DNA of 20,865 nucleotides from a virus. This document shows positions 401-14,656 of this stretch, one piece after another. The stretch lies in IMG/VR virus record IMGVR_UViG_3300042837_000031. One strand, written 5' to 3'. The notes under the pieces were generated by a model. The model had not been told where the DNA came from. It was given only the letters and a program-made list of their open reading frames with translations, and did not search any database. The stretch's first letter is position 1. Each line of letters opens with the position of its first letter. The position numbers and the translations under genes are program-made.

Positions 401-1084
401 TCAGTACACCTGAGCCACGGCGTAATCAGCTTCAGCCTTAGTGAAGCCCTCGCCATATTCGGACGTGAGCTGGCTACGTAGCTCGCGCTTTGAGAAGTGA
501 CCGCTCTCCAGGTAGGACTCAGCGGCCTCGACCGCCTCAGCCTTGTAGTCAGCGTCCACGTGGGCAAGAGCCCACTGAGCGTCTGCCTTGTCGAAGTCCT
601 CGCCGTATTTCGAGGTGAGCTGGTCCAGCAGGCCCTTCTTCGAGAAGTGACCGCTGTCCAGGTAGGACTCAGCGGACTCCAGGGCTTCCTTCTGCGCACG
701 CGTCACCTTGGCCTGAGGCTTAGGCGACACCGGGTCAGCGGGGTCAGTGTGGCCAGACTCAGGCGGGGCTGTGGGCTCGGCTTCCTGCGAGTGATACCCG
801 GTGCCCTGAGTGAACGCGCCTGACTCTTGCTCAACGGGCTGGCTTCCAACCGCGAAGCCAATGGCGCACCCGATCACGAATGTGATGATCAGCGCCAGCC
901 AGCCAAACCGCTTGTCCTTGACGCGCTGAGGCTTTGGCTGGCCTGGCGGGATCATGCCGCCGGGCCCTATGCCCTGGGTGATGGTGTCCGGGCCCTCAAG
1001 GTTCGGATTGTAGGGCTGTGGGTTGGCCGGAGAGCTGGTCATGAACCGCTGGCCGGGGTTGGGGTACTGCTGCGGGGTAGACAC
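401..1084 (-). CDS. ltp: Ltp-family superinfection-exclusion-like membrane protein. Layout: Pro/Gln-rich N-terminus, one TM helix, two tandem Ltp repeats.
   Basis: Two tandem repeats, AESYLDSGHFSKKGLLDQLTSKYGEDFDKADAQWAL and AESYLESGHFSKRELRSQLTSEYGEGFTKAEADYAV, match the Lipoprotein_Ltp signature (SYL..s.FSk.gL..QL....GF....A.yAv). TM helix FGWLALIITFVIGCAIGFAVG. Start chosen at GTG 1084, preceded by GAGAGGGG plus an 8-nt spacer. The ORF extends to GTG 1159, and ATG 1042 is also possible. Confidence 0.85.
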   Translation of the reverse strand: MSTPQQYPNPGQRFMTSSPANPQPYNPNLEGPDTITQGIGPGGMIPPGQPKPQRVKDKRFGWLALIITFVIGCAIGFAVGSQPVEQESGAFTQGTGYHSQEAEPTAPPESGHTDPADPVSPKPQAKVTRAQKEALESAESYLDSGHFSKKGLLDQLTSKYGEDFDKADAQWALAHVDADYKAEAVEAAESYLESGHFSKRELRSQLTSEYGEGFTKAEADYAVAQVY

Positions 1085-1161
1085 GTGATGTGCCCCTCTC
1101 TGGGTTGTGAGCCGAGTGGCTCGGTTTGGGCTGTCTCGCTGTCTCTCTGCCTGCTCCACTG

Positions 1162-4868: not shown

Positions 4869-4898
4869 ATTATCAAAGCCCAGCGATCGCTAGGTCAC
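4869..4898 (-). promoter_or_regulatory. Putative sigma70-like promoter for the early/replication gene block
   Basis: The minus strand has GTGACC (4898-4893), an 18-nt spacer, then GATAAT (4874-4869), with TG just upstream. Pattern match only. Confidence 0.3.
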
Positions 4899-6080
4899 TG
4901 ACGGCGTGTCGGGCTTCGGTGTGTCGATCTTGAACGACGCGCGCACCAGGTTGTGATCGCTGGCGTGGGGCTCGTACTCAGGCGTTCCGGTGATCACCAG
5001 AGTGCCCGCGTACGGAGTCACGGCGGGGCTCGTCAGGACGTCGTCTATCCAGATCCCCTCGCGGCCGGTGACACCCCAGCCGTTGCGGCTGTTGCGGCTG
5101 TCTCCGTCCATTTGGTTATCCGTGAGCCGGTCCCTGAGGTGGCGGTAACCAGCAGCGCCCAGGATCTTCCGGACACCAGCGTTGAATAGCTGGTCCTTCT
5201 GGGCGTCGTTCAGGTCACCGAAGATCACCACGCGCTCATGCTCGGGCAGCGTGGCCAGGTGGGCCACGATCTCCACGGCCTGGGCCTCGCGCAGCTTGGC
5301 TTCACCGGGCATATTGACGGCCAGGTGAGTGGCGACCGCCCAGAAGTCAGCGCCCGTGGCGATCGACTGGAGACGGACGCACGTCAGCGGCCGCGTGGAC
5401 GGGAAGCCGGGCAGCGCGGTGCTCTTGAGCTTGAACTCCTGGTGATCAATTGCCACCCACTTGTCAGCCCTCCATATGATCTTGGCCGTGCCCGAGCCCC
5501 AGAAATTCCAGTTAGGCCCGAGCCCATGCGTCAGCTCAGTAGCGCGGGCGTCGTTACACTCCTGGACCCCGAGCACGCTGGGCGCCACGTCGCGGATTAC
5601 CCGCACGAGCTGAGGGAGCCGAGCGGACCAGGCCCTGGGGCCCACGTCAAGGGGTGTCTTGTGGCGGATGTTGAACGATGCTGACCTGACTGAGGTGGAG
5701 GTGTCCACGGCGCCCGGTGCCTCTCTTCCGTAGCTGATGTGAATGTGCCCGGTGTGAGGGTCGGAGCCGGTGTATTCGCGGACGCCCTCAGCGGCCCGAG
5801 CGACTGACCAGATGCGCCGTCTGGTGATTATGTAGGTGGCGCCCAGGCGCTTGGCGTTGATCTTGAACCAGGCCAGGACTTGATCATGGTGAGCGGCGCT
5901 GTTGTCGTACAGCCAGAAGTCTGCCGCGTACCCGCCAGAGGGGACAGTGTCTTTCCCCGGGTCGCTGTGAGCGTGGTGAGGGTACGTGCCTATCTGGGTG
6001 TTGAATCGGTGCGCGATCTCCTCATTCGACTTGACCACCCAGCCCGGCCAGGGTCGGTAATTGTCGATGTACAGCCCCAT
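4890..6080 (-). CDS. Two-domain lysis enzyme: N-terminal LAS/M15-like zinc peptidase fused to a C-terminal endonuclease/exonuclease/phosphatase (EEP) domain
   Basis: N-terminal motifs: HHAHSD, GGYAADFW (GxAxD), and YIITRRRIWS...GSDPHTGHIHISYG (the Y.IW..rIW...H.dH.HvS pattern of cell-wall peptidases). C-terminal EEP motifs: LGVQECND, VIFGDLND, WIDDVL and HASDHNLV. It sits 2 nt after the holin-like stop; ATG 6080 is preferred over TTG 6086. Confidence 0.8.
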   Translation of the reverse strand: MGLYIDNYRPWPGWVVKSNEEIAHRFNTQIGTYPHHAHSDPGKDTVPSGGYAADFWLYDNSAAHHDQVLAWFKINAKRLGATYIITRRRIWSVARAAEGVREYTGSDPHTGHIHISYGREAPGAVDTSTSVRSASFNIRHKTPLDVGPRAWSARLPQLVRVIRDVAPSVLGVQECNDARATELTHGLGPNWNFWGSGTAKIIWRADKWVAIDHQEFKLKSTALPGFPSTRPLTCVRLQSIATGADFWAVATHLAVNMPGEAKLREAQAVEIVAHLATLPEHERVVIFGDLNDAQKDQLFNAGVRKILGAAGYRHLRDRLTDNQMDGDSRNSRNGWGVTGREGIWIDDVLTSPAVTPYAGTLVITGTPEYEPHASDHNLVRASFKIDTPKPDTPSVT

Positions 6081-6082
6081 GA

Positions 6083-6403
6083 TCAATAGCCCTTCTGTTT
6101 CGTCTGTTCGGCCAGGACCCTAGTGACGATCGACGCGATGCGCTCGTCCAACTGGCCATTGGTTTGGGTCTCCACGCGCTCAGTCACTTTCGCGGTGTCG
6201 CCCACGCGTGACCTGATCGACAGCCAGCCAGCAGCGATAGCCGCAAAGTTCGTTATCCACGCATAGTCGATCATCGCGCCAGGCTCGTGGGGTGCCCACT
6301 GCATGGCCGCACGGACGATCACGGCGATGCCGAATATCCACAGGCCCGCTTTGTCAGCGCCCGTGATCTTGAACTGGTCCCGCATATCGTTACTCACTAC
6401 CAT
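6083..6403 (-). CDS. Holin-like two-TM membrane protein
   Basis: TM helices GLWIFGIAVIVRAAMQW and AWITNFAAIAAGWLSI, followed by a charged C-terminal tail. Immediately upstream of the lysin. ATG 6403 is chosen and overlaps the HNH stop; ATG 6385 is possible. Confidence 0.65.
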   Translation of the reverse strand: MVVSNDMRDQFKITGADKAGLWIFGIAVIVRAAMQWAPHEPGAMIDYAWITNFAAIAAGWLSIRSRVGDTAKVTERVETQTNGQLDERIASIVTRVLAEQTKQKGY

Positions 6404-6702
6404 TGCCCCTTTGGTTCTGGATCGGCTGTTTCGTCCACGTGGGACAGGTTGCAGGGTGCACACGCTGCCCTGACGTTATCTGGGTGATCGGTCCCGCCTT
6501 GGGATTTGGGCACTATGTGCGCGGCCTGGGTGGCCAGCGTGGTGCATTTCGGGCCCCGGATCTGGCAGCGGTACTGATCGCGGCGCAGCACCAGGAGCCG
6601 AACACCGCGCCATGCTGCGGTGGAGCCACCAGCCCACGCCTTAGACACGGGGGCGCATTCTCCGGCGGCCGGGGAGATTCCACCAGCGTGGCCACAGGGC
6701 AC
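6397..6702 (-). CDS. HNH endonuclease
   Basis: WRGVRLLVLRRDQYRCQIRGPKC...AAHIVPKSQGGTDHPDNVRAACAPCN matches the HNH core, with N in the final CxxCN. GTG 6702 is the first in-frame start after TAG 6759-6757. Confidence 0.85.
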   Translation of the reverse strand: MPCGHAGGISPAAGECAPVSKAWAGGSTAAWRGVRLLVLRRDQYRCQIRGPKCTTLATQAAHIVPKSQGGTDHPDNVRAACAPCNLSHVDETADPEPKGQW

Positions 6703-14305: not shown

Positions 14306-14656
14306 CTAGCTCTCTCTCTTGAGTGTGATCTCAGCGCCGTACAGGACGCCAGCGTTTGGGATTTGGAAGTCAACCGGGAGCGCCGCCACCACGTACGCGA
14401 GCGGCGACACAGCGGACACCAGGAGCGAGAGGTGGGAGTCCAGGAAGTTCATTGCGTCAGTGGGCGTGCCCCCGGTGATCACGTCCACAAGCCACGTGGT
14501 CTCGAACAGTTCGAGCGGACCAGCAGCAAGCCAGCCGCCCCAGCGCACCCAGGCGTCGCCCACGTTGAGCATTGCGGGTTGGTCATCGTATCCAGTGATG
14601 TCCTGGACCGCGTCCACAGCCTGGGCGATCGCGAGCCTGTCAGCAGCGAGAGTCAT
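14306..14656 (-). CDS. Head-tail joining protein, tail-terminator-like by position
   Basis: The 116-aa gene is immediately upstream of the major tail gene, with an ATGA overlap to the adaptor gene. Confidence 0.45.
   Translation of the reverse strand: MTLAADRLAIAQAVDAVQDITGYDDQPAMLNVGDAWVRWGGWLAAGPLELFETTWLVDVITGGTPTDAMNFLDSHLSLLVSAVSPLAYVVAALPVDFQIPNAGVLYGAEITLKRES

Follow-up and report, generated by a model that had tools for sequence, protein, structure and literature searches.

The window considered here, by which is meant the whole analysed stretch of 20,865 nt from IMG/VR record IMGVR_UViG_3300042837_000031, is from an uncultivated soil actinobacterial phage, and it encodes a protein in which an N-terminal zinc peptidase of the VldE type is joined to a C-terminal EEP (endonuclease/exonuclease/phosphatase) domain. 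The protein is with high confidence an endolysin. Its EEP half is, as judged from sequence, very probably catalytically active, and the chance that this half is an envelope phosphoesterase, with a wall glycopolymer as its most likely target, is about even. The gene codes for an endolysin of modular build whose presumptive catalytic EEP domain represents a new class; it is one of a larger, so far undescribed set of lysins and receptor-binding proteins that carry EEP domains. The gene and its two domains are located in the window as follows.

4890..6080, minus strand: gene of the very probable endolysin, VldE-type peptidase plus putative EEP phosphoesterase, 396 aa; ATG at 6080, stop at 4890-4892; from the open reading frame (ORF), start and ribosome-binding site, Pfam and orthologues.
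5706..6080, minus strand: N-terminal VldE-type LAS zinc peptidase domain, aa 1-125; from Foldseek, profile alignment, conservation and the ratio of non-synonymous to synonymous substitution rates (dN/dS).
4902..5699, minus strand: C-terminal EEP domain, aa 128-393; from PF03372, a profile against 3G6S, Foldseek and dN/dS.

A mechanically called ORF covers 4890..6086 on the minus strand. Its true start codon, the ATG at 6080, gives a protein of 396 residues and has the Shine-Dalgarno sequence GAAGGG 9 nt upstream, and the homologues begin with MGLY; the limits 4890-6080, given in an original prediction made from the DNA letters, are therefore exact. The stop codon of an upstream holin-like gene is located 2 nt before this ATG, and the lysin gene is translationally coupled to it. 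The sequence of the lysin has neither a signal peptide nor a transmembrane domain (TMD), and the VldE domain begins at residue 1 (MGLYIDNYRPWPGW...). The properties of an endolysin are found here together: a position in the late region beside a holin-like gene, a peptidoglycan-hydrolase domain, and no secretion signal.

The C-terminal domain is an EEP domain, with a four-layer alpha/beta-sandwich fold in the structural model. The Pfam family PF03372 (Exo_endo_phos) is matched by aa 136-378 over profile positions 1-225 of 225 (E=2.5e-8, 34.4 bits versus a cutoff of 24.5); no PHROG family is matched by the EEP part. When the single lysin sequence is used to search the PDB, only 3G6S is found (E=5e-6), and when a profile of the EEP family is used, it aligns with 3G6S from end to end (E=8.5e-11) with all catalytic motifs in register, and with TDP2 across the GDxN and SDH motifs. 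The AlphaFold2 (AF2) model of the full-length protein has a predicted local distance difference test score (pLDDT) of 82.5, which is around 90 across most of the EEP domain. In a Foldseek search with this model, BT3783 (3MPR/4C1R) and 3G6S come out at the top (E=1e-17 to 1e-14, probability 1.0, template modelling score 0.75-0.81 on the target), and TDP2, neutral sphingomyelinase and nocturnin also match, with E around 1e-13. The matches to TDP2 and the sphingomyelinase are about four orders of magnitude worse than those to BT3783 and 3G6S, yet strong.

The catalytic set of the EEP superfamily is intact, with N137 (in SFN137), E174 (QE174), H252 (TH252), D289 and N291 (GD289LN291), D346 (ID346D), and D375 and H376 (SD375H376). 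The motifs QE, GDLN, D and SDH, from which the domain had been recognized in the original prediction, are thus all present, and a proper alignment to 3G6S and TDP2 keeps their catalytic residues in register. When conservation is counted among relatives with at least 200 aligned residues, E174 and D289 are found in 99 of 99, H252 and N291 in 97 of 99 and D346 in 94 of 99, while N137 (84/84), D375 (87/87) and H376 (85/87) are covered by fewer sequences. A degenerate EEP domain is ruled out by these intact residues.

BT3783 from Bacteroides thetaiotaomicron (3MPR apo, 4C1R) is an EEP-fold phosphatase that acts on phosphorylated yeast-wall mannan and N-glycans (PMC4978465). The likeness of the phage domain to BT3783 and to BVU_0621 (3G6S) consists in their being its top structural matches, and BT3783 is Mg-dependent with a phosphate ester on a cell-wall glycan as substrate. 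The differences are that the identity is 17-21% and that BT3783 serves a Gram-negative gut bacterium in nutrient acquisition, as a secreted or periplasmic enzyme. It is, furthermore, a phosphomonoesterase, and the likeness is therefore no demonstration of phosphodiester cleavage by the phage domain.

The N-terminal domain is a VldE-type LAS zinc peptidase (PF26571), by which the earlier suggestion of a zinc peptidoglycan peptidase of LAS/M15-like kind is both upheld and made more precise. It has no match in the local Pfam or NCBIfam, where the local Pfam copy is without the PF26571 model; for exactly this protein (P0001), which also carries PF03372, and for its orthologues, PF26571 'VldE' is available as a precomputed assignment. 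When an AF2 model of aa 1-130 (pLDDT 79.7) is compared with the PDB by Foldseek, the five VldE structures 9flk, 9flj, 9flh, 9fln and 9flm (E=8e-5 to 7e-4, probability 1.0) are the only matches at E<1e-3, followed by weak matches to LdcB, the L-Ala-D-Glu peptidase of RB49 (T4-like) and LysECD7. A profile of 21 homologues aligns across the full VldE domain of 9flh (E=0.12) and pairs D54 (AAD54F), H109, H112 and H114 of the lysin with D308, H370, H373 and H375 of VldE; these four lysin residues are invariant in the 21 homologues.

VldE (Spr1875) of Streptococcus pneumoniae is an L,D-endopeptidase with the LAS fold (MEROPS clan MD), with H301, D308 and H375 as Zn ligands and an extended H-x-x-H-x-H motif (PMC11667670). 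The phage domain is like it in fold, in its PF26571 assignment, in the Zn-ligand Asp (AAD54F versus LAID308F) and in the aligned H-x-x-H-x-H motif. It differs in that the identity is about 22-24%, and in that VldE is a cellular, LysM-bearing remodelling enzyme with its catalytic domain at the C-terminus, whereas the phage lysin has it at the N-terminus. A further difference concerns the loop with the first Zn-binding His, which is longer than in VldE and poorly modelled (pLDDT <50 for aa 37-49). The position of the first Zn ligand H301 of VldE (H-x6-D spacing) is taken by K43 in the lysin, but by His in most homologues (15/20), while H36 is present in 19 of the 19 sequences that cover its column and H38 covaries with the loss of H43. 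The Zn-binding and catalytic residues would accordingly be D54, H112 and H114, together with either H36 or H38. The active-site loop aa 33-44 (window 5950-5985, minus strand) occurs in two covarying versions among homologues, with R34/D38/H43 in most of them and P34/H38/K-or-A43 in the window lysin, P0021 and P0024, and the latter version may represent a relocated Zn-ligand histidine.

The dN/dS of the peptidase is 0.07 versus the 96%-identical orthologue and 0.14-0.17 versus orthologues with 71-74% identity, and that of the EEP domain is 0.10 versus the 96%-identical phage and about 0.30 (to 0.31) versus relatives with 71-74% identity. From these low values in both domains follows that both halves are kept by selection and that the fusion is no assembly artefact. 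A mis-fused or chimeric ORF is ruled out, in that the same fusion occurs in at least five related contigs and both halves are under purifying selection.

An exhaustive HMMER search with the EEP part among 1.84 billion protein representatives finds 298 relatives at E<=1e-3, with 14 at E<=1e-30. Full-length VldE+EEP orthologues with 71-76% identity are found in syntenic phage contigs. In IMG/VR there is a 96%-identical gene on a contig of 20.8 kb, with further relatives at 69-74%; an IMG/VR scan with P0083, an EEP fusion listed below, found nothing. A further search with an alignment of diverse EEP sequences, which was limited by its word index, added only the LAS+EEP protein P0190 and distant Tat-secreted EEP proteins. 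The original prediction treated the gene as a single oddity, but it is instead one member of a recurrent, undescribed class with fusions to GH25, M23, LAS and LysM. Peptidoglycan hydrolases of at least five types are among the partners to which the EEP module is fused, as are wall-binding modules and a receptor-binding platform; the fusions are the following.

P0030: LysM plus EEP, 50% identity.
P0031 and P0087: N-terminus of an endolysin PHROG plus EEP.
P0036, P0062 and P0190: other LAS/VldE plus EEP.
P0126: LAS plus PG_binding_1 plus EEP.
P0083: amidase-like plus M23 plus EEP.
P0104: GH25 plus EEP.
P0138: Phage_RBD_prop plus EEP, in a tail module.
P0174: EEP plus F5/8 type C carbohydrate-binding domain.
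P0124: double EEP, secreted by the type IX secretion system (T9SS).

The genomic contexts of three of these fit roles in lysis or entry: a Pfam Phage_r1t_holin gene comes immediately after the distant VldE+EEP gene P0062 in an unrelated temperate phage, the GH25+EEP gene P0104 comes after tail genes and is followed by a protein of 87 aa with two TMDs, and P0138 is located in a tail-fibre module. Distant EEP relatives of about 310 aa in cultured actinobacteria have twin-arginine translocation (Tat) signal peptides and are therefore secreted.

To put these parts together, consider that the small actinobacterial siphophage makes a bifunctional endolysin that depends on a holin and cleaves an envelope phosphate ester with its EEP half; this is the reading that we prefer, and we would believe it about as readily as doubt it. 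The upstream holin-like protein would permeabilise the membrane, and the VldE-type peptidase would then cut the peptide part of the peptidoglycan, by analogy with VldE, an L,D-endopeptidase on cross-linked stem peptides. The EEP half would be a Mg-dependent phosphoesterase whose substrate, a phosphate ester, belongs to a component of the envelope outside the cytoplasm. The likeliest target would be a wall glycopolymer that contains phosphate (teichoic-acid-like or sugar-phosphate), or else the phosphodiester by which such a polymer is linked to peptidoglycan, and with this target gone, polymers that shield the wall or stabilise it would be stripped off or loosened.

An envelope target is favoured because the fusion partners are wall hydrolases, wall- or carbohydrate-binding domains and a receptor-binding platform, because the structural neighbourhood is that of BT3783 and 3G6S, and because the distant relatives in cultured actinobacteria are Tat-secreted. 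It is favoured also because a lysin that waits in the cytoplasm must spare the phage DNA and the inner leaflet of the membrane: an envelope-specific substrate would make the enzyme harmless there, which could not be said of a non-specific DNase or of a general phospholipase. An envelope phosphodiester had been proposed from the DNA letters, and what has gained from the wall-related fusions and the BT3783 neighbourhood is the envelope part of that proposal, while the bond may be a phosphodiester or a monoester. Extended to the whole class, the reading becomes somewhat more tentative: the EEP modules may be an unrecognised class of active domains in lysins and receptor-binding proteins of soil Actinomycetota phages, cleaving phosphate-ester or phosphodiester bonds of wall glycopolymers, either by depolymerising teichoic-acid-like or sugar-phosphate polymers or by detaching them from MurNAc-6-phosphate.

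Several points weigh against this. These catalytic residues are shared by nucleases, lipid phosphodiesterases and phosphomonoesterases of the EEP superfamily, among which neither sequence nor fold discriminates here. The distant fusions (RBD_prop, F5/8C, M23, GH25), at about 27-35% identity, may differ in specificity. The upstream gene would be a holin by its topology and position only. Finally, the standalone cellular EEP proteins considered next look cytoplasmic and are very basic, which points, for them, to a polyanionic substrate such as nucleic acid.

These standalone proteins of about 260 aa, at 45-48% identity and with up to 281 member sequences in some clusters, are the closest non-phage relatives, and they are chromosomal in metagenome-assembled genomes (MAGs) of soil Propionibacteriaceae/Actinomycetota (L008-L019, L005, L006). 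They are without signal peptide and have isoelectric points (pI) of 9-10.3. Their neighbours are unrelated housekeeping genes that differ from locus to locus (epimerase, MarR, aminotransferase, arginase, RibD_C, FAD oxidoreductase, BadF-type ATPase), and neither a conserved operon nor a prophage was seen among the loci examined, so that the neighbourhoods give no hint of function; PADLOC gave no defence-system match for the phage lysin or for the standalone cellular proteins. Their first-codon-position GC is below that of the neighbouring genes, and one short contig that carries an EEP protein (P0027) also has a GDPD gene (L007 5847-6752).

These relatives also bear on the alternative of a nuclease. 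According to this alternative, the EEP half would be of the DNase I/ExoIII/TDP2 type, released at lysis or acting late, and would degrade host or extracellular DNA, with lysate viscosity or the extracellular DNA of biofilms as possible points of action. The absence of a signal peptide and the high pI of the relatives are as for nucleic-acid binders, the catalytic set is the same as in nucleases, TDP2 is among both the profile and the fold matches, and in BFVD the annotation of most EEP folds from viruses is nuclease or TDP2-like. The phage-fused domain, however, is near neutral, with a pI of 7.9 and 30 K+R versus 29 D+E, and has on this sequence criterion lost the basic character of its cellular relatives. 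Its top fold matches are BT3783 and 3G6S rather than DNase I or ExoIII, a non-specific DNase in the cytoplasm would be expected to endanger the phage DNA, and fusions to peptidoglycan hydrolases, LysM, PG_binding_1, a carbohydrate-binding domain and a receptor-binding platform are hard to explain for a nuclease. A nuclease, which had been offered as the alternative from the beginning, is in this way weakened and now appears unlikely, although the apparently cytoplasmic and very basic nature of the closest non-phage relatives still speaks for it.

Still less likely is a lipid phosphodiesterase of the phospholipase C/sphingomyelinase type, which would act, as a LysB-like accessory, on membrane phospholipids or on lipid-anchored glycopolymers such as lipoteichoic acid, lipomannan and lipoglycans anchored by phosphatidylinositol (PI). 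Actinobacteria do have PI-anchored lipoglycans, and the fold of human neutral sphingomyelinase is matched with E=1.4e-13. Further in favour is a standalone EEP gene (P0017) in phage contig L004, which is located between tail genes and genes of small membrane proteins, as is often the case for accessory lysis genes, with an M23 peptidase gene 3 kb downstream. Beside this EEP gene (L004 11049-11438, 11441-12537) there are a soluble protein of 129 aa, a protein of 143 aa with about four TMDs, one of 107 aa with an N-terminal TMD and a hydrophobic peptide of 45 aa, and the cluster looks like a split lysis cassette. The sphingomyelinase is, however, below the BT3783/3G6S group in the fold ranking, no hydrophobic membrane-insertion element was identified, albeit without a rigorous test, and the fusions with LysM, PG_binding_1 and the carbohydrate-binding domain point to the wall and not to the membrane. 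A general phospholipase would, moreover, be expected to hit the inner leaflet before the holin is triggered.

The position of the EEP domain in the lysin is one that usually holds a binding module or a second lytic module, as the original prediction remarked, and this agrees with sibling lysins that have the same VldE N-terminus (67-83% identity) and other C-terminal modules. In the siblings P0021, P0024, P0026, P0029 and P0176-P0188 (e.g., L003 10001-10828), these modules are without family match, and are either a beta-rich domain of about 150 aa or a segment of 70-90 aa in which 'DAKLDAILA' is a conserved motif; the order in L003 is an M23 peptidase gene of its own, the lysin gene and a holin-like gene with several TMDs. 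Least likely of the alternatives is that the EEP domain is a wall-binding module only, recognising a phosphate-bearing wall polymer without turnover and leaving all lysis to the VldE peptidase: it does occupy the slot of non-catalytic-looking modules in the siblings, and wall-binding domains of lysins commonly recognise teichoic acids, but all catalytic residues are near-invariant in about 100 divergent relatives, which is unusual for a degenerate binder, a standalone EEP gene occurs in a phage lysis/tail region, and P0126 and P0190 have PG_binding_1-type repeats besides EEP, so that in P0126, which already has a wall-binding module, EEP is not merely a binding domain.

When the preferred bifunctional endolysin is compared with known phage systems, the points of comparison lie outside the EEP superfamily. 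GDPD domains in tail-associated lysins of staphylococcal and enterococcal phages are thought to attack wall teichoic acids (PMC10194240, PMC13433997), and known wall-acting phage phosphodiesterases are, in the literature, GDPD or metallophosphatase domains in virion proteins. The GDPD lysins are a precedent for phage phosphodiesterases combined with peptidoglycan hydrolases, and the EEP relative P0138 is likewise part of a tail receptor-binding protein. They differ in that GDPD is a TIM barrel (PF03009) unrelated to EEP, and in being virion entry enzymes of Firmicutes phages and not endolysins; the lysin has no match to PF03009, and its fold is EEP. With LysB, the mycolylarabinogalactan esterase of mycobacteriophages, there is analogy only, in that a second lysis enzyme cuts an envelope linkage other than peptidoglycan. 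LysB is a cutinase-like serine esterase, mycolata-specific and encoded by a separate gene, with no relationship to EEP in sequence or fold, and the lysin has no Pfam or PHROG match to a cutinase-like alpha/beta-hydrolase. There is likeness in organization to the LysA-type endolysins of actinobacteriophages (peptidase plus amidase or glycosidase plus wall-binding domain), which are similarly modular, with an N-terminal peptidase, swappable C-terminal modules and a gene beside the holin gene after the tail genes, but the EEP domain is not found in the cultured-phage genomes searched.

Upstream of the lysin gene are the other two genes of the cassette.

6083..6403, minus strand: holin-like gene, 106 aa, ATG at 6403; from hydropathy and position; the mechanical ORF reaches 6463.
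6397..6702, minus strand: HNH endonuclease gene, between tail and lysis genes; PF01844 E=2.7e-7, phrog_333 E=5.8e-17.

The cassette had been described in this order from the DNA letters, and its HNH gene is confirmed by PF01844, while the upstream membrane-protein gene is called holin-like from topology and position. The ATG of the latter overlaps the HNH stop codon, and hydropathy gives its protein hydrophobic segments and a charged C-terminal tail; no family in Pfam or PHROG is matched, and in the syntenic contig L001 two clear TMDs are seen in the orthologue at the corresponding position. The HNH gene is not beside the terminase gene, and the L001 region that matches it holds two small gene calls of 71 and 81 aa.

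The window as a whole is a siphophage genome of about 21 kb with a GC content of about 65% and all genes on the minus strand. First comes the large terminase, then an ORF for portal, protease and capsid, tape-measure and tail proteins, HNH endonuclease and small membrane protein, and thereafter the lysin gene, PrimPol and helicase, and an Ltp-type superinfection-exclusion lipoprotein. The terminase has at most 36% identity to terminases of cultured actinophages, with Arthrobacter phages at the top. Portal and capsid functions are apparently in one reading frame: a single ORF of 1023 aa (16122-19193, minus strand) matches PHROG portal at aa 38-387 and head-maturation protease/major head at aa 439-1019, and the next ORF of 334 aa (14653-15657) has no PHROG match. 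The lipoprotein gene (401-1159, minus strand; phrog_4980 E=1.2e-42, with PF07553 in the syntenic L001) is a hint that the phage may be temperate or may protect its host, and no integrase was seen in the window.

The targets of endolysin catalytic domains are, to our knowledge, taken to be bonds of peptidoglycan only (glycosidic, amide, peptide), and we know of lysin chemistry beyond peptidoglycan only as LysB esterases and GDPD domains in tail lysins. When the 50,697 cultured-phage genomes in INPHARED are searched by tblastn, there is no match for the whole protein (E<=1e-5), for the EEP domain alone (E<=1) or for the EEP domain of P0083 (E<=0.01), and in the full-text literature no paper was found that links EEP, PF03372 or Exo_endo_phos to endolysins or lysins, in agreement with the suggestion that the lysin chemistry is undescribed. 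In BFVD, EEP folds occur in a few cultured phages with generic annotations (Streptomyces phage Yosif, Citrobacter phage CrRp3, and Citrobacter phage CR8 'tail fiber').

If the more tentative reading, extended to the whole class, is true, a third lysin chemistry would stand beside glycosidic and amide or peptide cleavage, and the gene would encode a bifunctional endolysin of VldE peptidase and 'teichoicase'. Confirmation would establish a new lysin enzyme class, whose stripping of wall polymers could aid enzybiotics that are blocked by teichoic acids, and a function would be found for a large number of proteins annotated as 'EEP family metal-dependent hydrolase'. It would also show that wall polymers act as barriers or receptors in soil hosts of Propionibacteriaceae-like kind, about which little is known. 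The conserved, intact EEP module with its various fusion partners suggests that many uncultivated actinobacterial phages may need cleavage of envelope phosphate esters both for exit and for entry.

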